From IMG/VR virus record IMGVR_UViG_3300009181_007093: DNA of 64,000 nucleotides; one strand, given 5' to 3'. The translations under genes and the position numbers were made by a program. Shown piece by piece: positions 1,834 through 36,681 of this stretch (the first letter of the stretch is position 1; every line of letters begins with the position of its first letter). Below the pieces are notes generated by a model. The model was not told the origin of the DNA. It searched no databases and saw only the letters and a list, made by a program, of their open reading frames with translations. Source of the DNA: a virus.

Positions 1834-2566
1834 TGATTAGCTTTTTTTCCATGTGGAACTTAATATCATTAAAACTCCACGGTGTTCCAAATGGAACTTC
1901 CTCTCTTATATTATCCACTCCAACATCTAACGTAAGATTATTCTTCAAAAACAAAGTTTGCATTGATTTAACAAAAATATCAACTTTTTCTGGTTCTACT
2001 TTGAATTCTGTTAAATCTTCTATCCTGCTCTTAATAGTTTCTTTTTCTTCCAAGCTGAGGACGCAATCATCTTGTTGTTTTAATTTGTTATGTACGTGTC
2101 CATACAACATCCAAGAACCATAATTTGAACTAGGCCAAGATCTACAAGGATAGTGACTCGTAAAAATATTTTGCTTTTCTATATAAAAAACATGGTGGTC
2201 ATAAATAGCTTTAAAAAAAGAAGATAGAACTTTTCTATTATCATGGTTTCCGAAAATAAGATATATATTCTTGCAATTTATCCTGTCAAAGAAGTCTGCG
2301 ACGTCTTTTTTTGTTGTGCTGCTCCAACAAAAATCCCCTAAAATAACTAAATTATCGTCAGAAGCAACGGTGTTGTTTGTTGATTCAATTATGCAGTTGT
2401 TCATCTTTTTAACTGCGTCTTGATCTATTGTAACGCTCTTTAACGATATACACCCTTTTTTAGCAAGAGAAATAGTTGCTTTTTCGTATTCTGTAAGAAA
2501 AGGTCGATTGCAATACTTTATTATGTTTATATGGTTAAGATGCCAATCGGCTGTAAAATGCCACAT
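1826..2566 (-). CDS. Calcineurin-like metallophosphoesterase
   Basis: Motifs ADWHLNH, LGDF, GNHD, SHYP, YGHVH, DVGVD. Confidence 0.9.
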   Translation of the reverse strand: MWHFTADWHLNHINIIKYCNRPFLTEYEKATISLAKKGCISLKSVTIDQDAVKKMNNCIIESTNNTVASDDNLVILGDFCWSSTTKKDVADFFDRINCKNIYLIFGNHDNRKVLSSFFKAIYDHHVFYIEKQNIFTSHYPCRSWPSSNYGSWMLYGHVHNKLKQQDDCVLSLEEKETIKSRIEDLTEFKVEPEKVDIFVKSMQTLFLKNNLTLDVGVDNIREEVPFGTPWSFNDIKFHMEKKLINE

Positions 2567-2630
2567 TTATAGTCTGTTCAAAAGTTATTGAATTGCAAAC
2601 AAACCCAGTTAATCAAAGGTTTGCTACTTC

Positions 2631-2659
2631 ATTATACCATGAATTACCACTATTGTCAA
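2631..2659 (-). promoter_or_regulatory. sigma70-type promoter TTGACA-17-TATAAT
   Basis: Minus strand reads TTGACAatagtggtaattcatggTATAAT; perfect consensus with extended TG, upstream of the phosphoesterase/sigma cluster. Confidence 0.8.
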
Positions 2660-2671
2660 ATAGCAACCCGA

Positions 2672-3325
2672 TTATCCGCACAAATATGGTATTTTAGTGG
2701 GCTTTTCGACAAACTTTGGCATACGGAGTACAGAATTAATCTCTGTTTTGTCGGAGTTTTTGAACTCTTCATGCCATCCATGTTTTGCAATACAAACAGT
2801 TGGGATAGGAAGATTTCCAACAAAATGGGTGAATCCAAGCATGAAACGGATAACAGCAGCTTTTGTATCTCTTAGATGAAAATTTTCTTTAAATTCTTCT
2901 CCAAATAAAGATTCTTCAAAATTATCATGATCATGAGAATAGTTTATTGTTGATCTAACTAATAATGTTAGCAATGATTTTTTTATAGGACAGTCTAACC
3001 AGAAATTAGATGGTTCTATCCACAAAACGCTTGAGTGAGACGTTTTCGCAAAGTTAGAATTTTTAAACTTATTTACATGACTACAAAGAATAACGTCTTC
3101 AAATTTTTTTAAAAAGTTCGCCACTGAGGCTTCTTTTTTAACTTCATGACAAAAGAAAAACCCTTTTGATTTATTATTTTTGTAATCAAATTTAGCAGAA
3201 AATTGTTCTCTACAATAGTCCCATTGTAAAGAACAATTTTCTTTATCTTCTAATGCAAAGCTTCCAATAATAGGCGTACTGTAATGCGATTTATATTGCT
3301 TGAAATCAAATTTTTGGCGAATCAT
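2672..3325 (-). CDS. Hypothetical protein, paralog of 28432..29040
   Basis: Shares WxYCRxxF, FFFxH, WIxPSxxW, SLxTxLxR, AVxRFxxGxTxxVG and GWxExF motifs with 28432..29040. Confidence 0.75.
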   Translation of the reverse strand: MIRQKFDFKQYKSHYSTPIIGSFALEDKENCSLQWDYCREQFSAKFDYKNNKSKGFFFCHEVKKEASVANFLKKFEDVILCSHVNKFKNSNFAKTSHSSVLWIEPSNFWLDCPIKKSLLTLLVRSTINYSHDHDNFEESLFGEEFKENFHLRDTKAAVIRFMLGFTHFVGNLPIPTVCIAKHGWHEEFKNSDKTEINSVLRMPKFVEKPTKIPYLCG

Positions 3326-3331
3326 ATATTA

Positions 3332-3559
3332 TCAAATATTTTTAAATCTAATCCATTTTGAGTCTTCTTCAGACCAAACAATAGGAAATCCTTTTGGTAT
3401 AGTGTCTAAAATATCAAAAAGTTCTGTTTCTGTTTTTGAACGCTCAACAGATCTTTGAAAAATTAAAGGATGAACAGAAGCATATCTTTCTTTCAATTTG
3501 TTTATAATTTTTTCGTCCATCGATGCTCTTAAAGTTTTTGTAAGCAGGATCTTCTCCAA
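3332..3559 (-). CDS. Hypothetical protein (start may be ATG 3520)
   Basis: Fills the gap between neighbours in the operon. Confidence 0.55.
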   Translation of the reverse strand: MEKILLTKTLRASMDEKIINKLKERYASVHPLIFQRSVERSKTETELFDILDTIPKGFPIVWSEEDSKWIRFKNI

Positions 3560-3783
3560 ATATAACAGAACAAAACTCCACCCAATACAGACATAATAAG
3601 TCCTGCTGGTTTAAATTGTGATCCGCCTGATATCATATAATTAACAAGTCCTCCTATAAAAGAACCTGCAACGCCTATTAAGAGCGTTGGCAAAAAACCT
3701 ACAGGCTCATTGCCTGGATGTGTAAATTTTGCTATCGCCCCAACTAACAATCCAAAAACCACCCAACACAATAACGCAATCAT
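3529..3783 (-). CDS. GlsB/YeaQ/YmgE family (transglycosylase-associated) membrane protein
   Basis: WVVFGLLVGAIAKF..PG....GFLPTLLIGVAGSFIGG...SVLGGV signature; ATG 3783 overlaps the upstream stop. Confidence 0.85.
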   Translation of the reverse strand: MIALLCWVVFGLLVGAIAKFTHPGNEPVGFLPTLLIGVAGSFIGGLVNYMISGGSQFKPAGLIMSVLGGVLFCYIWRRSCLQKL

Positions 3784-4688
3784 TTTGTCCTCCATTTTGG
3801 TGAAACTATTTCATAATATATATCAGGCACCTTATTCATATTTATTTCTCGGAATAAATCGGCTCTATATAAAGTGTGCTTATCTTCAAACTCTTTTAAA
3901 TTTTTAAATCCATATACCGCCTGTAATGCTGATTCTGCCGAATTTTTTTCTACAATCTTCAAGAATCCATGCAGCTTAACTTCGCCAAATTCTTTTCTAA
4001 GAAAAAGACAAAGCACTAAAGAACACTCATCAAACTCTTTCTTTTTATCTGCACTAAAAGCTTGATAATCATCATGCGATGTTTTAAAAACTTCTTCACA
4101 ACTAAAGAATACTTTGTTTAAAGAAGCTTCTCTCATGATTTTTTCTATATCGCCCATAGATGAGTTCATAATGCCAGCAGAATTTACAAACCACCAAGGA
4201 GTAGCAAATCCATTTTGCTCATCAAACTCTGCAAAACTTGCCATTGTTAACAAGCCCGTAATTTCGCTGAACCCATCGTTGTTTAATACCATCCAAATTA
4301 CTGATATCTCTAATTCTCCATCTTTTTTCCTAACCTCTATTTTTGAACTATCTAAGCCAAAAAGTTTTTTTAGTAAACTATGATTTGGAACACAGAATAC
4401 ACGGCATTCTTTTGAAAATTTTGTTTTTGGAAAGCCCCATCTAGAAGTACACCAATAATTATATAATTCTATTCGATCTGAAAGAAGAATTCCTTGTTTG
4501 TTGTCTATGCTTAAGATAACAAAGTTGTTGTTAGCGTAACGATTCCATTCTAAAGACTTTAATTCTGGGTCGTCTTTCAAATTATCTTGTTTAAAGTCAA
4601 CAGGATAAGTAATTTCGCTTCCTGTTAAATTGTTGCAAGCAATTAAATAAATGAACATTCCAAATATAATGATTATAGTTTTCAGCAT
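3780..4688 (-). CDS. Hypothetical exported protein
   Basis: 302 aa; hydrophobic N-terminal signal ending LIAC. Confidence 0.65.
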   Translation of the reverse strand: MLKTIIIIFGMFIYLIACNNLTGSEITYPVDFKQDNLKDDPELKSLEWNRYANNNFVILSIDNKQGILLSDRIELYNYWCTSRWGFPKTKFSKECRVFCVPNHSLLKKLFGLDSSKIEVRKKDGELEISVIWMVLNNDGFSEITGLLTMASFAEFDEQNGFATPWWFVNSAGIMNSSMGDIEKIMREASLNKVFFSCEEVFKTSHDDYQAFSADKKKEFDECSLVLCLFLRKEFGEVKLHGFLKIVEKNSAESALQAVYGFKNLKEFEDKHTLYRADLFREINMNKVPDIYYEIVSPKWRTK

Positions 4689-29543: not shown

Positions 29544-32500
29544 CTATTGTTGTTTTTTCATTGTACATTTTTCAAATTGCATAAGACAGTCTTCTTGTGT
29601 AATTGTATTATCTATTACTCCTTTTTTCATTATAGCAACTCTAAAATCATCTTTTTTATCAGATGTATTTTTACCACGACGGTTAGGCTTATGTTGGTTG
29701 CTTTCTAACGAAAAAGTAAAAAACCCATTTGAAGGTGCCTGTAGCCTCAATCTAAGTAAGTTACCTACTAAAAATTCTTCTTTCCATCTTTCCCAATCAT
29801 CTTGCCAAATAATTATTTTGTTTTCTTGTCCTGTAATATCCTCTGCGGTCAAATGATAGTATACTGTTCCTTTCTTACTTTTAGTCTTATTGGTCTTAAT
29901 AACACACACCTCAACTGGTCCAACTGAGGCACTTGGTGACCCTTTTTCCGAGTTATTTGTTACTGTAGAATAATCTCTTAAGTTATTAAATGTTAATTTA
30001 ACGTTATGATCTGGGCTGAATTCTAATGGATGTGCCAAGGAAAACCCATAATACTTCCTCTCACATGCTATGTAATTTGATATTTCCTCCTCTGTTTCGG
30101 CATCTAATTTGGCATCTAAATCATTAAAATCACCGAGTTTTGGTGAGTTTTTTTCATTATTTTTATTTTTTTCTATTGATCTATTTCTTTTGTCCCACAA
30201 CTTTTTAAAAGAATTAAGAGGGTTAAAGCTTTTCTTATTCTTAACTTTTTTGTAGTATACAACAATTTCTTTTTCTATAGTAACGCCACAATCTAAAGTA
30301 ACTGTGCCATTGGTTAGCTTTGCAATTGCACCGTCTTCATCTTTTTCGCATTTAATGCTACCTTCAACATAACGAACCTCTTCGACATCATACTTCTTCC
30401 AATAGTCCAATTTATAAGGGTTGGTGCTTTTTATATCAGATAGGTTAGTTGTTTCATTTGGAAATAAAGATTTAAACTCATTGTCATATTTTAGCATAGT
30501 CGCTATATGTCTTTTTTGCTTTTCTTCTTTTTTCTTGAAATAATTTTTATATTTTTCTGCAAACCTCCAAAGCGTTACAGGGTCACTTTCAGTAAAGCAT
30601 CGCAATCCTATCAATGGCTTTAAAACATTTGCCTCTGTTCCGAACCTTTCAAGAAAGTCTTCAAAATCTTTATACGGTTGACACTCTATAATTCTTGTGG
30701 CGGGAGCTTCACCAATACCTTTAATGTTAGAAAAACCAAAGTATATAATGTCTTCTTGCAAATCAAAACTTATTTTTGACCTATTTATATTCAAACCACA
30801 GACTTGCACACCATGCCCTTTTGCTTCCATTTTGTATTCTTTTATTTTTTCACTTGATTTTTCGCACCTTAAGATACTAGTGTAAAATTCATTTGGATAG
30901 TGAGATTTCAAGTAAAGAAGATAAGAAGAAATATATGTATATGCAACAGCATGACTGTTGCTCGTTACTATTCCGTTGGGCAAAATAAAGTTGTGTGTTC
31001 GATTGGAAACTTCAAGATCGTACATTTGATGCCTGCCCATGGGCAAGACTCGTAAAATTTTCCTAGACACCAGACTCCCGGTATTGGAGATTGAAGCATG
31101 TTCTGAAATACTTCCCACCAATCCAACGCCATTCTTCCCGTGCTGCTGTGGAAGCATGACATGCCCACTCTTATTAACATCACATCTTTTCTTCTTAAAC
31201 ACTCTTCGTTCAACATGGCATCTCGCTGTTGAACAATCGGCAACCGAAAATTTATTGGTTTGTTGCTTTGATGCTCGTAAAAATGATAAAATCCGTCTAC
31301 TTCTATCCAAATTTTTCCTTTCGTCATATCTACCTGCTTCCACTTTCGATCCGACCTTTTCCCACAACGAATTTTCTTGGTTCCCCATTTTAACTGGGCA
31401 CGCAACCAAGCTTCCATTTTTGATCGTTTTGGACTTTTCCATGCAGCTTCTGTGCATTTTGCAAATTTTTCTGGGTTTTCTTCTCTCCACTTTTTCAATC
31501 GTTCTGCTCTTTGTGCTTGTATCTCTGGGCGGGCAGATGTTTTTCTTGCAGAAACAGAAGAGGCTCTCCGATGACCTTCCGAGCGATTTGTCTTTAAATT
31601 CTTTGCTTTTATATTTTCTCGTTTTATTCTTTCGCAATCTTCGCAAGTTTTTAGATGCTTGTCTCTCGGAATCATTCTTTGAAATTCTATTTGACATCGA
31701 GATTTGAAAGTCTTTCCGCCGCCCCAGCCCAACCTTCGACACTCTCGACAAGCTGACTGGTGCTTCAGCATCAACGACTTTGATGGAAATATTTCTCCGC
31801 AACGAGCTTTTGATTCTTTTTTTGCTGGCATATTTTTCTCCGTATTCTTTTTCACAAAATATAGAAACATCTTTAGCCAGTATTTCACGAAGCGAAATTT
31901 GTCCATCCTCGGTTAAAAATTTATGATCTATGGTACAAATTATTTCATACCCATCATCAAAAACAACCTTGTGTCCTTCTAATATTCCGTGATCATGTAA
32001 ATTAACTACAAAAGTTTCTGCTTTGTTCCCTTGTTCATCTATGCAATAAACCTTATCGCCTTTTTGAAAATCACAAATTTTCTTAAGTCCTTTAGGCGTA
32101 GGTATATATGTATCTTGGTGCACAGATTTATTAAATCCATATTCAGAAAAAGCTTCAACTTGCTGATACAGATGGTTTATTGCTTCTTCACTTATTCCAA
32201 GATTCTTTTTACCATTTATTAAAAAAGCCTCTTTATACTTTATAAAACTCTCTACCTTCTTTTTTGATATTGCTTTTCTTACTAACTCGCAATCTTTTAG
32301 CGGTATGTTACCAACAACATTAAGCACTCTCATTACTTGTTCTTGATAAATCATCACGCCATAAGTTTCGCCTAATATCGGCTGCATTAATGGGTGCAGT
32401 TGATAATCTTCTCTCTTCTTTTTTCTTTCTATATACCTTTCCTGCATTTTCATGTTTAATGCGGAAGGTCTGTTAAGGCTCGTATAGGCAACTAAATCTT

Positions 32501-33491
32501 CAAAATTATCCACACCTCCTGTTCGGCACATGTTCCTGACTGTTTCACTGTCAAATTGAAATATGCCTTTAAGATCGCCTATATTTGCCATGCTAATGCT
32601 AAGAGGATCATTTCTCCAAGCAGCAACATCACTCCAATCTGACCTACCTTTTAATGCACATATACTTTCTAAATTGTGTCTGGACTTAACCAATTCACAA
32701 CAAAGTGCAACTTGTAATAAGTTAGAAACAACCAATAGATCAAACTTTACAAGACCAACAGGTTGCAAATCTTGCCCATGAAGACCTTCTACCCAAGAAG
32801 ACGCTTGTGGGCTGTCTTTCCTTTTAACAAGCGGTACTAAGTCAGATAAAGGTGTACTTGAAATGATAAGACCACCTGCATGAACTCCCATGCCTCTGTT
32901 TCTATGCAGTAGTTTCTTAGCAGATTCTGCTATATCTTTGTTGTCCGAGCAGTATTTTTTTAAATCAGGATACAGCTTCATTGCTGCGTCCCATGTCATA
33001 TCTTTGCCTTCGTCGTCTTTTGCATCTAAACTTTTTGTTAATCCAAGAATTTCATCTCTACTTTTACCATAAACACGAACCATATCAATTAAAGCAGACT
33101 TGATTCCAAATGTAGTATAATTTCCAATATTGCAAACATATTCTTCTCCAAAAGTTTTTGGTGCCCAACTTTCTTTAATATAATTTCTTACCTGCTGGAT
33201 ATAATCCGAGTCTATATCAGGAAAATCTCCATATGTACACGTTGGATCCAATTCTATTGAATGTTCGGATACAACTCCTAATAGCCAGCAAATTAAAAGG
33301 TTATTCTGATTAACAGCGTATCTTATATTTTTCTCATATAAATTATAAAAATAATCAATTTTATTTTTCGCTTCTATTTCCTCTATTTCCCACTTTAATC
33401 TTTTTTGATAACGAGCATCATTAAACAAACCTTTTTCTATAAGATTTTTCTTGCAAATATCAAGTATTTTTTCTTTAATAGGATTATTCAT
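29544..33491 (-). CDS. dnaE: DNA polymerase III alpha, C-terminal gene (palm/fingers/HhH/OB), intein-containing
   Basis: PDIDSD, GVHAGG, LVKFDLL, IFQFDS, YGVMIYQEQVM, GFNK|SHAVAY, IKGIGE. Lacks the PHP domain and GRGSAAG. Confidence 0.95.
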   Translation of the reverse strand: MNNPIKEKILDICKKNLIEKGLFNDARYQKRLKWEIEEIEAKNKIDYFYNLYEKNIRYAVNQNNLLICWLLGVVSEHSIELDPTCTYGDFPDIDSDYIQQVRNYIKESWAPKTFGEEYVCNIGNYTTFGIKSALIDMVRVYGKSRDEILGLTKSLDAKDDEGKDMTWDAAMKLYPDLKKYCSDNKDIAESAKKLLHRNRGMGVHAGGLIISSTPLSDLVPLVKRKDSPQASSWVEGLHGQDLQPVGLVKFDLLVVSNLLQVALCCELVKSRHNLESICALKGRSDWSDVAAWRNDPLSISMANIGDLKGIFQFDSETVRNMCRTGGVDNFEDLVAYTSLNRPSALNMKMQERYIERKKKREDYQLHPLMQPILGETYGVMIYQEQVMRVLNVVGNIPLKDCELVRKAISKKKVESFIKYKEAFLINGKKNLGISEEAINHLYQQVEAFSEYGFNKSVHQDTYIPTPKGLKKICDFQKGDKVYCIDEQGNKAETFVVNLHDHGILEGHKVVFDDGYEIICTIDHKFLTEDGQISLREILAKDVSIFCEKEYGEKYASKKRIKSSLRRNISIKVVDAEAPVSLSRVSKVGLGRRKDFQISMSNRISKNDSERQASKNLRRLRKNKTRKYKSKEFKDKSLGRSSESLFCFCKKNICPPRDTSTKSRTIEKVERRKPRKICKMHRSCMEKSKTIKNGSLVACPVKMGNQENSLWEKVGSKVEAGRYDERKNLDRSRRILSFLRASKQQTNKFSVADCSTARCHVERRVFKKKRCDVNKSGHVMLPQQHGKNGVGLVGSISEHASISNTGSLVSRKILRVLPMGRHQMYDLEVSNRTHNFILPNGIVTSNSHAVAYTYISSYLLYLKSHYPNEFYTSILRCEKSSEKIKEYKMEAKGHGVQVCGLNINRSKISFDLQEDIIYFGFSNIKGIGEAPATRIIECQPYKDFEDFLERFGTEANVLKPLIGLRCFTESDPVTLWRFAEKYKNYFKKKEEKQKRHIATMLKYDNEFKSLFPNETTNLSDIKSTNPYKLDYWKKYDVEEVRYVEGSIKCEKDEDGAIAKLTNGTVTLDCGVTIEKEIVVYYKKVKNKKSFNPLNSFKKLWDKRNRSIEKNKNNEKNSPKLGDFNDLDAKLDAETEEEISNYIACERKYYGFSLAHPLEFSPDHNVKLTFNNLRDYSTVTNNSEKGSPSASVGPVEVCVIKTNKTKSKKGTVYYHLTAEDITGQENKIIIWQDDWERWKEEFLVGNLLRLRLQAPSNGFFTFSLESNQHKPNRRGKNTSDKKDDFRVAIMKKGVIDNTITQEDCLMQFEKCTMKKQQ
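30957..32126 (-). mobile_element. Intein (390 aa) in DnaE at GFNK|SHA
   Basis: Block A SVHQDTYIPT, block B CTIDHKFLT, blocks F/G MYDLEV...HNFILPNGIVTSN, +1 Ser. No endonuclease motif in the intein frame. Confidence 0.92.
30968..31831 (-). CDS. Zn-finger plus Vsr/DUF559-type endonuclease nested in the +1 frame of the DnaE intein
   Basis: ACGGAGAAAAAT-ATG at 31831; 287 aa; two RCxxxFx7KHxxxCxxC repeats; SKMEAWL...QVDMTKGKIWIEVDGFYHF...RDAMLNEECL...LIRV. Confidence 0.85.
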   Translation of the reverse strand: MPAKKESKARCGEIFPSKSLMLKHQSACRECRRLGWGGGKTFKSRCQIEFQRMIPRDKHLKTCEDCERIKRENIKAKNLKTNRSEGHRRASSVSARKTSARPEIQAQRAERLKKWREENPEKFAKCTEAAWKSPKRSKMEAWLRAQLKWGTKKIRCGKRSDRKWKQVDMTKGKIWIEVDGFYHFYEHQSNKPINFRLPIVQQRDAMLNEECLRRKDVMLIRVGMSCFHSSTGRMALDWWEVFQNMLQSPIPGVWCLGKFYESCPWAGIKCTILKFPIEHTTLFCPTE

Positions 33492-33604: not shown

Positions 33605-34507
33605 TTACTGAAGCACACTGGAATCAAAATTTCCATCTATTTTATTTTTGTTATGATGATGGTGGTGATGATGGTGGTGGTGATGGTAGGTTTTTCCTGA
33701 GTCATCGCCTTCTTCGCCTTCGTCTTCTTCTTCAGCGTCTTCTTCGGCGTCTTCCTCAGCATCGTATTCAGCGTCTTCGGAGCCTTCCTCAGAGTCTTCT
33801 TCAGAGCCTTCTTCAGAATCATATTCAGCGTCTTCGGAGCCTTCCTCAGAGTCTTCCTCAGAGCCTTCCTCAGAGTCTTCTTCAGGTTCATTCTCCGAGT
33901 CATATTCTGACTCATCCCCTTCTACGTCTGGTCCAAACCCAATCGGAGTAGCAACCATTTCATTAATTGTATTTAACAATTTTTTTGAATAATGCTCATT
34001 TGTTACTGCTATTTTTGCTAATATCTTTAATGCTTCGTCGTGGCTCAACATCTCTAGCAAAAATGATTCAAAAATTTTGCTTCGTTTAACAGCTCTGACC
34101 AATGTTGATACGTTTTCCTTATTACACTTACAAGATTCAATAACATCTTTTGCAAGATCATGTATTTGACATCTGCATTCATTCTTTGTTAGATCTTTTG
34201 TAAATTCTGCCATGGACAAGTTTTTTGTTTCATTAATCCACTCGCTAACGCTTTTCTTTTGTAGGTTTTTCATTCCCTTATGTCCTAAAGCTTTTGGATC
34301 ATCTTTGTTAGGGTTTTGACCATTCGTTCCTGAAATATATGAAGCAGGTTCTCCGACTGGTCCTTTTCCACCAGCGTGCTTGTGCATTTTCTCTTTTTCA
34401 GGCTTACGGACTACATCGCCTGAATAATCTGCTACCTTCTCAACTTTTGGCTTAACAACCAATTTTTTATTGGTATCAATATACTCTTGGAAGGTTTTAT
34501 ATTTCAT
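33605..34507 (-). CDS. Hypothetical protein with capsid-targeting-like N-terminus, acidic repeats and His11 tract
   Basis: MKYKTFQEYID; SD AAGGAG; CATATATATATT upstream. Confidence 0.75.
   Translation of the reverse strand: MKYKTFQEYIDTNKKLVVKPKVEKVADYSGDVVRKPEKEKMHKHAGGKGPVGEPASYISGTNGQNPNKDDPKALGHKGMKNLQKKSVSEWINETKNLSMAEFTKDLTKNECRCQIHDLAKDVIESCKCNKENVSTLVRAVKRSKIFESFLLEMLSHDEALKILAKIAVTNEHYSKKLLNTINEMVATPIGFGPDVEGDESEYDSENEPEEDSEEGSEEDSEEGSEDAEYDSEEGSEEDSEEGSEDAEYDAEEDAEEDAEEEDEGEEGDDSGKTYHHHHHHHHHHHNKNKIDGNFDSSVLQ
33653..33880. repeat. Eleven His codons (33653..33685) and EEDS/EEGS repeats
   Basis: Directly visible. Confidence 0.85.
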
Positions 34508-34559
34508 CTGATTCTCCTTTGTTACCCTATTGAAATATATATATGCTTTATGTTTAAAA

Positions 34560-35285
34560 CTAATTAAGTCTTTTTTTTAACATTTTACAGTATGTATCAC
34601 TAATTTCTGAAGATATCCACTTTCTATTTAAATTTTTACAACATTTCGCAACGGTTCCAGTTCCTGCAAAAGGGTCATAAATCAAATCGTTTTCATTGCT
34701 AAAGTTTTCTAAAATCTTGTTTACAAGGTCTTCTGGAAATGCTGCACCATGTCCTTTTGCTGTTGTTTTTTGCCTTTTAATTTGCCAAATATCATTAAGT
34801 TCGCCTCTGGGGAAATTGCACTTTTCAAAAGCTCTAGATATTGAATTTTCTTTTTTCTCTAAAACTAGTATTATTTCATGCTGGCGGTTTAAAACGCTAT
34901 GATGCATAGATGGCTGTGCATGGCATTTATCCCATATTATGATATCTTTTATATTTTCAGAAAAATCACCAATCATTTTGAAAAAAGCACGTTTTGACCC
35001 AGTAACAATTGATATATTATAAAAGGTTATTTTAGAAACTCTAATAAGATCCGACAAAATAGCTTTGTGATTAGAGTAAAAGTCTTCTATTGGCACATTA
35101 TCAGAAAACTCAGAATACTTCGTGCTGAACTCTTCTTTTATAATTTGTCTTGAACAATAAGAACCATTCCTGATCCTTAGGTTCATATTATACGGAGGAG
35201 ATGTTAAAGATAAGTCTACAAAGCCATCCGGCATTCTAGACATAGTTTCCAAACAATCTTCGTTATAAATTTTGTTAATTTCCAT
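34560..35285 (-). CDS. Site-specific DNA methyltransferase, N4-C/N6-A beta class
   Basis: TSPPYN before HGAAFP and YDPFAGTGT; ATG 35285 overlaps the end of dnaE-N. Confidence 0.93.
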   Translation of the reverse strand: MEINKIYNEDCLETMSRMPDGFVDLSLTSPPYNMNLRIRNGSYCSRQIIKEEFSTKYSEFSDNVPIEDFYSNHKAILSDLIRVSKITFYNISIVTGSKRAFFKMIGDFSENIKDIIIWDKCHAQPSMHHSVLNRQHEIILVLEKKENSISRAFEKCNFPRGELNDIWQIKRQKTTAKGHGAAFPEDLVNKILENFSNENDLIYDPFAGTGTVAKCCKNLNRKWISSEISDTYCKMLKKRLN

Positions 35286-36681
35286 CAAAAACTTCACTAA
35301 CAGGTAATGGATCAATATTCTTAAATTCTAAAGATATAGATCTTCCTCCTCTTGCTTCACTCATAAAACGACTAAACAAAAGTCCTTCTGCCACTGGATC
35401 TACATTAGTTATCCCTAAACAATAACAAGTCAAAGCTCCAGCAGCCGACCCCCGCCCGGGGCCAACGGCTTGACTGCCATCGCCCCACCCTAACAAACTA
35501 GGGCAAATCCTTCGTGCCTCGTCTGTCATCATTTTTTGAATCAAAAAATAACTAGAAAAACCCTTTCTTGTTATAAGGGAATATTCTTCTTTTATTCTTT
35601 CTAAATATTCTTTATTTTTTGGAAGATTTCTAAAAACAAATCCTTTCATTACTTCTTCTTTAAGAGATTCATCTGCGTCAGGAAGTATGGGAAGCTTTAA
35701 ACTTCTATCTAGCTGAACACCTTTTGCTCTTTCACAAATTTTTACTGTATTCCTTTTAGCTTCACAAAATAATTCATATGGTATCGTGTCCGAATATTGG
35801 TCTAACCATTTTTTATTTAATTCTTCTTCGCTTTTCATCCATAAACTAGCATCCTGTAACTCAAAAAAGTCTTGTGCCTCATCGGCTTCTATCGCCTTTT
35901 GTATTTCTTGAACAGTTCTATTGGTCTGAACCATCAACATAAGTCTTTGAAACTTACTGTCTTCCTGATTGCAATAATGACAGTCGTTAGACAAAATGAG
36001 TGGCAATCCGTACTTTTCATGTGCCTTAATTATAAAAGCATCATAAGGCTTTTGCTTCTTAAAATCTAAAAGCATTAATTCCAAGAAGTAATGGTCTTTA
36101 CCAACCATTTCTACATATCGTTCAATAACGGCACAAGCTGCTTCTTCACCGCCTTTATCAAAAGCTCTGCCTACTTCGCTACTATAGCAGCAACTAGTGA
36201 AGAATAAGCCTTCTTTATGTTTTATAAGCTGTTCATAATTAACTCTTGGCTTTCTATAAAAGCCTTTAGTCCAACCCCAACTAGTAAGTCTAACAAGGTT
36301 TTTATATCCAATATCGTTATATGCAATTGCTAAAAGATGCGGACTGGCTTTTATTTCACTCTTCTCTTCTTCATTGAGATCCAGAATAAACTTTTGAACG
36401 TCTGCTAGTCCATTTGATTCTGGCTGAAGGCGATTAATATAAAGTTCGGCGGCAAATATAGGGGATAAAGTGTCTTTGCCTTTCTTTTCATTTATTCTTT
36501 CACATGCTTTTATTTGTCTTGGTACAGCACCAAGCATACCGTGATCGCTCACAGTAAGAAATTTCTGATTAATTTGAGGTGCCCTTTGGGCATATTCCTC
36601 TGTTAAACCGAAGCCATCTAAAAGACTAAAATCTGTATGAAGATGGAGATGTTCAAAGCCTACGATATCACAAGTTTTCAT
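35275..36681 (-). CDS. dnaE: DNA polymerase III alpha, N-terminal gene (PHP domain to GRGSAAG)
   Basis: HLHLHTDFSLLDG, SDHG, GFYRKPR, NDCHY, GPGRGSAAGAL, LLFSRF, then a stop before the catalytic aspartates. Confidence 0.95.
   Translation of the reverse strand: MKTCDIVGFEHLHLHTDFSLLDGFGLTEEYAQRAPQINQKFLTVSDHGMLGAVPRQIKACERINEKKGKDTLSPIFAAELYINRLQPESNGLADVQKFILDLNEEEKSEIKASPHLLAIAYNDIGYKNLVRLTSWGWTKGFYRKPRVNYEQLIKHKEGLFFTSCCYSSEVGRAFDKGGEEAACAVIERYVEMVGKDHYFLELMLLDFKKQKPYDAFIIKAHEKYGLPLILSNDCHYCNQEDSKFQRLMLMVQTNRTVQEIQKAIEADEAQDFFELQDASLWMKSEEELNKKWLDQYSDTIPYELFCEAKRNTVKICERAKGVQLDRSLKLPILPDADESLKEEVMKGFVFRNLPKNKEYLERIKEEYSLITRKGFSSYFLIQKMMTDEARRICPSLLGWGDGSQAVGPGRGSAAGALTCYCLGITNVDPVAEGLLFSRFMSEARGGRSISLEFKNIDPLPVSEVFDGN

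Follow-up and report, generated by a model that had tools for sequence, protein, structure and literature searches.

How can one strand of DNA encode both an uninterrupted intein and, in a second reading frame, a complete homing endonuclease, and which of the two products does selection keep? This question is raised by the DnaE polymerase gene of a virus, IMG/VR record IMGVR_UViG_3300009181_007093, of which a stretch of 64,000 nucleotides (hereafter, the window; GC content, 34%) was analysed. An earlier note on this DNA had described a 390-aa DnaE intein with normal splicing blocks at both ends and a motif-less middle, over which a 287-aa open reading frame (ORF) with a nuclease-like core could be read in the +1 frame of the same strand. 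Our analysis makes it very probable that this is a cis-splicing DnaE intein carrying a complete Vsr-like homing-endonuclease gene in the +1 frame, with both frames kept open by selection. Such same-strand dual coding, about 0.86 kb in length and with very strong statistical support, is easily missed.

The DnaE intein and the endonuclease in its +1 frame

The DnaE gene (29544..33491, on the minus strand, as are all features of the intein described below) is an ORF of 1315 aa, which runs from the palm/fingers to the C-terminus and matches the Pfam families DNA_pol3_alpha, DNA_pol3_finger, and HHH_6. Inserted at GFNK|SH is a stop-free translation of 390 aa (Ser1 to Asn390; 30957..32126), identified as an unsplit class-1 intein by a Pfam match to Intein_splicing and an alignment of 17 homologous inteins. 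The N-extein ends in GFNK (32127..32138), and GFNL|SH stands at that site in the intein-less relatives L037, L040, and L043; the translated intein begins with Ser, ends in ...VTSN, and is followed by the +1 Ser and the His of the C-extein (SH of GFNKSH; 30951..30956). The match to Intein_splicing, covering residues 16-389, was the sole Pfam match of the intein frame. The N-terminal splicing domain (residues 1-100; 31827..32126), with conserved columns, contains blocks A and B (T65-x-x-H68), and the C-terminal splicing domain (residues 346-390; 30957..31091), which was found conserved in all loci by tblastn, contains blocks F and G and ends in TSN. An AlphaFold (AF2) model of the intein frame gave a beta-rich, Hint-type structure for these ends, with predicted local distance difference test scores (pLDDT) of >90 at residues 1-90 and about 90 at residues 350-390. 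The normal splicing blocks claimed earlier are thus present (Ser1, T65-x-x-H68, Asn390, the +1 Ser, and the Intein_splicing match), suggesting a class-1 intein with intact splicing blocks that would splice in cis. Any splicing in the window must be in cis, because the intein forms part of one ORF without a stop.

Between the two splicing domains, the intein frame encodes a K/R/S-rich spacer (residues 101-345; 31092..31826). No domain was found in this middle with Pfam or PHROGs, and no folded endonuclease domain was seen between the splicing blocks in the AF2 model, in which residues 109-344 had pLDDT values of <50 and no secondary structure. When 17 intein-frame translations were aligned, both ends were conserved, and the stretch between them was unalignable.

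The same region read in the +1 frame contains a gene of 287 aa plus a stop codon (30968..31831), supported by its translation, its homologues, and an AF2 model. A Shine-Dalgarno sequence, GGAG (31838..31841), which recurs in relatives, lies 6 nt 5' of the ATG (31829-31831), in agreement with the coordinates and spacing reported previously. Twenty homologues with 34-69% identity were found in a clustered protein database, and an exhaustive search yielded 155 representative clusters at E<=0.001; DNA and protein searches of the GenBank phage collection found no match, and the family is not known to occur outside metagenomes. The AF2 model, based on an alignment of the homologues (mean pLDDT, 86), reproduced the two zinc-finger units and the helical linker proposed in the earlier note: two zinc-finger-like beta-beta-alpha units at about residues 7-66 (31634..31813), with conserved Cys/His columns, are joined by a helical linker to an alpha/beta domain at residues 135-272 (31016..31429). 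In a comparison against 48,161 chains with VIA-align, the model matched E. coli Vsr best (1cw0_A; Z, 10.5; rmsd, 3.0; 119 residues aligned), followed by the catalytic domain of I-Bth0305I (3r3p_B; Z, 8.2; 90/98 residues aligned) and 3hrl, a DUF559-like Neisseria protein (Z, 7.3). Foldseek matched the fingers to C2H2 fingers with a probability of about 0.9 and weak E-values; the whole-model Foldseek search against the PDB gave nothing at E<=0.001, with Vsr and C2H2 fingers weakly matched, and a profile search against PDB sequences returned only noise and no sequence-level match to a chain. D168, D179, H183, and D204 are invariant in 19 homologues, E140 is nearly so, and E177 is invariant or nearly invariant. 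The window endonuclease is full length and has every invariant and nearly invariant residue of the family. Taken together, the model and the invariant columns support the +1 product as a real, conserved Vsr-type nuclease, which would be expected to cleave DNA.

The residue pattern resembles that of I-Bth0305I and the “EDxHD” homing endonuclease family, with an extra acidic residue at the position of Vsr Phe62 (Taylor et al. 2011, PMC3239194; PDB 3R3P). Both proteins have a Vsr-like fold, an E, D, H, D pattern with an additional acidic residue (E140, D168, E177, H183, and D204 in the window), and a bipartite architecture in which DNA binding is assigned to the N-terminal part; the mapping onto Vsr E25, D51, H64, H69, and D97 follows motif order (PMC3239194), so that the correspondence of residues comes from their order and not from superposition. 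In contrast, a group I intron encodes I-Bth0305I, whose N-terminus carries NUMOD/HTH motifs, whereas the window protein combines at least two Cys/His zinc-finger-like units with a long helical linker.

At its 3' end, the endonuclease gene overlaps the C-terminal splicing domain by 124 nt (30968..31091), as judged from tblastn, pLDDT, and codon positions, and its stop codon ends 11 nt short of the splice junction. Both frames are meaningful in the initial part of this overlap, which then continues as a read-through tail of the endonuclease. The last 25 or so endonuclease codons are read-through into the C-terminal intein part, because the matches of distant homologues end near residue 260 and the pLDDT collapses after residue 277 (<50 at residues 278-287 in the window).

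Selection on the overlapping frames

To quantify stop avoidance, the synonymous codons of the +1 ORF were permuted in 20,000 shuffles, and the stops arising in the intein frame were counted. The intein frame of the window contains 0 stops, as compared with a mean of 15.6 under synonymous shuffling, and zero-stop shuffles were not obtained (0/20,000; P<5e-5). A stop arises in the intein frame when a T-ending endonuclease codon comes directly before a “risky” one, defined as a codon that starts with AA, AG, or GA. In the window, T-ending codons were found before risky codons in 0/86 cases and before other codons in 50/162. The analysis was extended to related loci gathered from assemblies, IMG/VR, and JGI metagenomes. 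In a first set of 25 distinct dual-coded loci (GC, 31-61%), the endonuclease was always at +1, the host frame contained zero stops, and each locus gave P<=5e-5. Later searches added four more loci with an open host frame (L088 and L090-L092), together with a further, distant dual-coded locus (L086) with 32% identity and a different intein subtype. The dual-coded layout thus occurs in about 30 distinct homologous loci with GC contents of 31-62%, in the +1 register throughout, and shuffles yield 8-22 stops where these loci have none. By comparison, the split controls L001, L006, and L023 contained 14, 30, and 33 stops against 12.5, 28.4, and 28.0 expected. A test of stop avoidance in homologous inteins, as proposed by the earlier note, was therefore significant in 25 of 25 distinct loci, with split controls at expectation. 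The intein frame is kept open by selection, not by chance.

We also considered whether the whole endonuclease family might be stop-free in the -1 frame by composition; this was ruled out, since 18 more distant family members carry 17-36 stops in the corresponding frame, and the openness of the intein frame is therefore not a by-product of family composition. Another explanation is an artefact of assembly or sequencing, in which an in-frame endonuclease was displaced by two compensating frameshift errors. Erroneous frames of this kind would not remain open, as the shuffles show, and in many loci an endonuclease-frame stop lies just 5' of the Shine-Dalgarno sequence and ATG. Because the same +1 offset with zero host-frame stops recurs in about 30 independent loci from different samples, with different assemblers and GC contents, we exclude such an artefact, whose probability we regard as negligible.

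Which of the two proteins is constrained was examined in a codon alignment of the 25 dual-coded loci. In the overlapped middle, differences at endonuclease codon positions 1/2/3 were 0.44/0.36/0.62, and the endonuclease frame was 47% identical, as against 24.5% for the intein frame; the least variable intein codon position was its third, which is the second position of the endonuclease. In the C-terminal splicing part, the corresponding differences were 0.23/0.38/0.39, with identities of 54% in the endonuclease frame and 59% in the intein frame. The closest pair, the window and L025, differed in the middle by 0.18/0.15/0.56 at endonuclease positions 1/2/3, with identities of 76% in the endonuclease frame versus 39% in the intein frame. 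Substitutions in the middle thus track the endonuclease frame, those in the C-terminal splicing part track the intein frame, and the frame-wise check of selection suggested earlier favours the +1 frame for the middle.

These data also bear on the possibility that the intein-frame middle is a functional disordered basic domain, for example one that binds DNA or regulates splicing, with both frames selected for their products. The middle is indeed kept open and is K/R/S-rich in the window. However, its third codon position is the least variable, its low identity and unalignable sequence are accompanied by no predicted structure, and its composition follows from the frame-shifted K/E/R-rich codons of the endonuclease. 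We therefore consider a functional domain highly improbable. The shuffle test, the identities by frame, and the disorder predicted by AF2 agree with the earlier view of the middle as a linker kept open, and they support an unfolded spacer that is retained merely as stop-free sequence.

The register of the overlap may explain how this is possible. All of the approximately 31 dual-coded loci are in the +1 register, whereas split relatives at the same DnaE site show register +2 in 11 loci, 0 in 3, and +1 in 5; these counts are not phylogenetically independent, as the split relatives at +2 belong to a sister lineage of inteins, recognizable by the C-terminal motif DHQ(F/Y)YL...TSN instead of THNF(L/I)L...TSN. 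Dual coding at +1 costs the endonuclease no amino-acid change, because the initial T of each potential stop is the third position of an endonuclease codon, and a change from NNT to NNC is always synonymous. At +2, a TGA is inevitable wherever Met precedes K, N, T, I, or M, giving a mean of 1.5 unavoidable stops per homologue. The counts thus support a register rule, according to which +1 would permit synonymous removal of all host-frame stops. Such a rule would explain simply, and in a way open to test, why the host gene stays intact after some endonuclease invasions but is broken by others.

Translation, alleles, and split relatives

The independent translation of the endonuclease that the earlier note had assumed is argued for by the conservation of its start signals. 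In most of the closer dual-coded loci, (A)GGAG lies 3-6 nt before the ATG, and in 11 aligned dual-coded loci both the Shine-Dalgarno motif and ATG-CC are conserved. Promoter and terminator signals in 30700-32400 did not exceed those of shuffled sequence, and the minus strand had no relevant signal. As an alternative to internal initiation, programmed +1 ribosomal frameshifting could produce an endonuclease fused to the N-terminal part of DnaE and the N-terminal intein half. Such a fusion would be compatible with the +1 frame of the window, which is open for 27 codons 5' of the ATG, and with relatives that have no clear start codon (L011/L012); against it stand the (A)GGAG and conserved ATG of most loci. 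It is further disfavoured because endonuclease-frame stops 2-3 codons 5' of the ATG in L002, L004, L026, L027, and L031 leave no room for a shift site, and we consider it very unlikely. Translation of the endonuclease from its own start inside the intein ORF is the reading suggested by these sequences.

Several observations weigh against the proposed combination of a splicing intein and an internally translated Vsr-like endonuclease. The intein has Ser in place of the usual penultimate His. Further, L011/L012, L032, and L033 have no obvious Shine-Dalgarno sequence with a start codon at the homologous place, and for this reason it is possible that internal initiation does not occur in all loci or that some copies are in decay. 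Finally, searches of the +1 product against Pfam (E up to 1) and PHROGs found no family. In the structure and profile searches of both frames that the earlier note had suggested, structure comparison yielded a Vsr-type fold for the +1 product, and only the splicing domain was found in the intein frame, but no profile matched the +1 product. Accordingly, of the Vsr/DUF559-type core proposed in that note, the Vsr-type fold was recovered by structure, whereas “DUF559” can serve only as a fold-level label, because the sequence has no Pfam or PHROG match.

Splicing, internal initiation, DNA cleavage, and the target of the endonuclease are steps that we infer, and they could be combined as follows. 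An endonuclease gene of the free-standing type sits in the loop between splicing blocks B and F. The polymerase mRNA would be translated straight through, the approximately 240 overlapped codons giving a disordered basic spacer that would be removed with the intein, and the endonuclease would be made separately from its own Shine-Dalgarno sequence and ATG within the intein ORF. The endonuclease would presumably cut intein-less dnaE around GFN(K/L)|SH, leading to homing of the whole unit. Selection purges intein-frame stops through synonymous third-position changes in the endonuclease. Inteins that tolerate a disordered insert of about 240 residues, together with their natural split homologues, may serve as parts for protein engineering.

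Alleles of the site were found by a search with the N-extein, which retrieved the closest DnaE relatives (51-81% identity). Empty alleles with GFNL|SH are present in L037, L040, and L043/44. Mini-inteins of 188 and 201 aa with an open intein frame were found in L038/39 and L041, respectively, that of L038 being about 610 nt shorter than the intein region of the window. In both mini-inteins (L038:2966-3529 and L041:2969-3571), the +1 frame keeps the original start (Met-Pro-Lys) and leads on into the original C-terminal tail. They are internal deletions of the endonuclease, because the +1 frame retains its first and last residues. The earlier note had supposed that the endonuclease invaded a mini-intein; the related mini-inteins found here do not bear this out, as they are endonuclease-deletion derivatives and not empty precursors. 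Their occurrence in close relatives indicates that decay happens in the lineage and raises the possibility that the endonuclease of the window is itself an inactive passenger, its open +1 frame a remnant and only the intein being kept. The window copy is, however, full length, with a confident fold and a complete set of the family-invariant residues, and the differences between the window and L025 lie mostly at endonuclease third positions, with the higher identity in the endonuclease frame. We therefore consider a decaying passenger unlikely, and a maintained endonuclease gene remains our preferred reading.

Split true homologues of the window unit were found in L001, L006, L019/L097, L087, and L096-L116; in L001, both intein halves are in one frame, with the endonuclease at +1. 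A different intein occurs at the same DnaE site (GFNR|C...) in L042:2900-4700, where it is split, with a free-standing LAGLIDADG gene between its halves, and thus represents a fractured gene with a third endonuclease type. Related phages therefore carry empty, dual-coded, mini, Vsr-like split, and LAGLIDADG split alleles at a single DnaE site. From their sequences, the coexistence of empty, dual-coded, mini, and split alleles appears to be the pattern expected of a homing cycle.

The earlier note regarded the window layout as a possible intermediate on the route to split inteins. The presence of homologous split forms at the same DnaE site agrees with this proposal, and on sequence grounds the layout is a plausible precursor of split inteins. 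A tree built from the endonuclease core placed 26 dual-coded rows and 2 split rows in the +1 clade (support, 98/95); its early branches were dual-coded, and the two split rows stood apart from each other, nested among the dual-coded rows at weakly supported forks. An approximately unbiased (AU) test did not reject a single clade of all dual-coded rows (p=0.22), so that the unsplit-to-split direction is not settled by the tree. This direction is nevertheless favoured by a ratchet argument, because one nonsense mutation splits the gene, whereas the removal of a dozen stops without stepwise selection is implausible. We tentatively suggest, as a serious possibility rather than a probability, that in this lineage the unsplit +1 dual-coded form is the common and ancestral state, persisting because no register other than +1 lets synonymous T-to-C changes in the endonuclease remove all host-frame stops, and that one nonsense mutation in this form is enough to produce split-intein fractured genes, in which stops then accumulate irreversibly to the neutral level. 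If this is true, natural pairs of unsplit and split forms at one DnaE site make the origin of split inteins directly testable.

Relation to known systems and further loci

Out-of-frame endonucleases in unsplit inteins are rare but already published, first in 1998, and the novelty implied by the earlier note was overstated, as antisense cases have also been described. Gosselin, Arsenault and Gogarten (bioRxiv 10.1101/2025.01.02.630785) reported unsplit inteins with an endonuclease VII-like gene in “frame 3”, with antisense LAGLIDADG genes, and with antisense Vsr-like genes, Vsr-like enzymes being otherwise known only from split inteins (Gosselin et al. 2025, 10.1101/2025.01.02.630785). Phillips, DeSimone and Gogarten (bioRxiv 10.64898/2026.09.14.751524) described a cyanobacterial dnaX intein with a LAGLIDADG gene in a “+2 ORF” and frame-dependent dN/dS, and they credit Gorbalenya 1998 for an out-of-frame endonuclease in an intein (Phillips et al. 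2026, 10.64898/2026.09.14.751524). These non-canonical inteins are similar to that of the window in being unsplit, with conserved splicing ends, an unstructured middle, a complete overlapping endonuclease ORF with its own Shine-Dalgarno sequence, and selection on the endonuclease frame, and their proposed origin is likewise an invasion by a free-standing endonuclease gene. What sets the window apart is a Vsr-like gene read from the sense strand, at register +1, within the DnaE of uncultured phages, many of them AT-rich, with split homologues at the same site. The new part is therefore the sense-strand Vsr-like gene in an unsplit intein. Our literature searches uncovered neither an unsplit intein overprinted by a Vsr-like endonuclease on the sense strand nor a site occupied by homologous forms of both kinds, unsplit and split.

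The fractured genes of Dassa et al. 2009 (PMC2677866) are all split arrangements, in which the intein halves flank a free-standing Vsr-like or GIY-YIG gene. They too affect phage DNA-synthesis genes, including dnaE, with the same-strand order of N-half, Vsr-like endonuclease, and C-half, and the 3' end of the endonuclease overlaps the C-half by 6-69 bp, as compared with 124 nt in the window. In contrast, they have a stop after the N-half, a non-coding spacer of 27-51 nt, and a new start for the C-half, and the window has neither a stop nor a spacer. Two marks of a fractured gene are thus distributed differently: a same-strand endonuclease that lies between the halves and overlaps the C-half at its 3' end is present in the window, whereas a host broken into two ORFs is found in L001, L006, and L019 and not in the window. 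The window therefore fills a missing combination between the Vsr-like enzymes of split fractured genes (Dassa 2009) and the non-canonical unsplit inteins. A further comparison is offered by the ShiLan-type out-of-frame HNH insertions in phage methylases, which involve no intein (Arsenault et al. 2025, PMC11855218). As in the window, an endonuclease ORF is hidden in another frame and the host frame is stop-free; these insertions differ in their HNH nuclease, in their GC-rich actinophage hosts, and in having no detectable ribosome-binding site, and the insert remains in the host protein because there is no splicing domain.

The recorded gene calls for L002, L003, L025, L027, and L028 contain the endonuclease and, downstream, a piece of DnaE, but no continuous DnaE ORF; because of this omission, dual-coded polymerases look split in the records, although the frame is actually continuous. 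A very divergent member of the endonuclease family was observed in a homologous DnaE intein (L024:2950-4145), where it directly follows block A instead of lying between blocks B and F; its register is again +1, and the 367 host-frame codons contain 0 stops versus 9.8 expected. Homologous dual-coded units also occur in non-DnaE host genes, in L009, L011 (about 2000-4300), L013, L015, and L018. One host is a protein of about 350 aa, whose N-extein resembles sigma-factor region 2, and another is larger than 1200 aa with no clear family; the host proteins of L009, L011, L013, and L015 gave no clear family in Pfam and PHROGs. One phage carries two copies of the unit, as L008 (in DnaE) and L013 share one viral contig.

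Further divisions of DnaE were noted. In the split relative L001 (1-2900), a second fracture lies upstream in DnaE, where a PHP/alpha gene and then a gene with a DUF4379 match come before an ORF whose palm domain is preceded, at the start of the ORF, by the C-terminal half of an intein (...VAHN|C). In the window, DnaE is divided upstream as well (33605-36681, minus strand), a PHP-domain gene (35275..36681) being separate from the intein-bearing gene. Between these pieces lie a DNA methyltransferase-like ORF (34560..35315) and an acidic protein with a His run (33605..34507). No intein halves are visible at this upstream break, and the second gene opens with what looks like a decayed copy of the end of the first.

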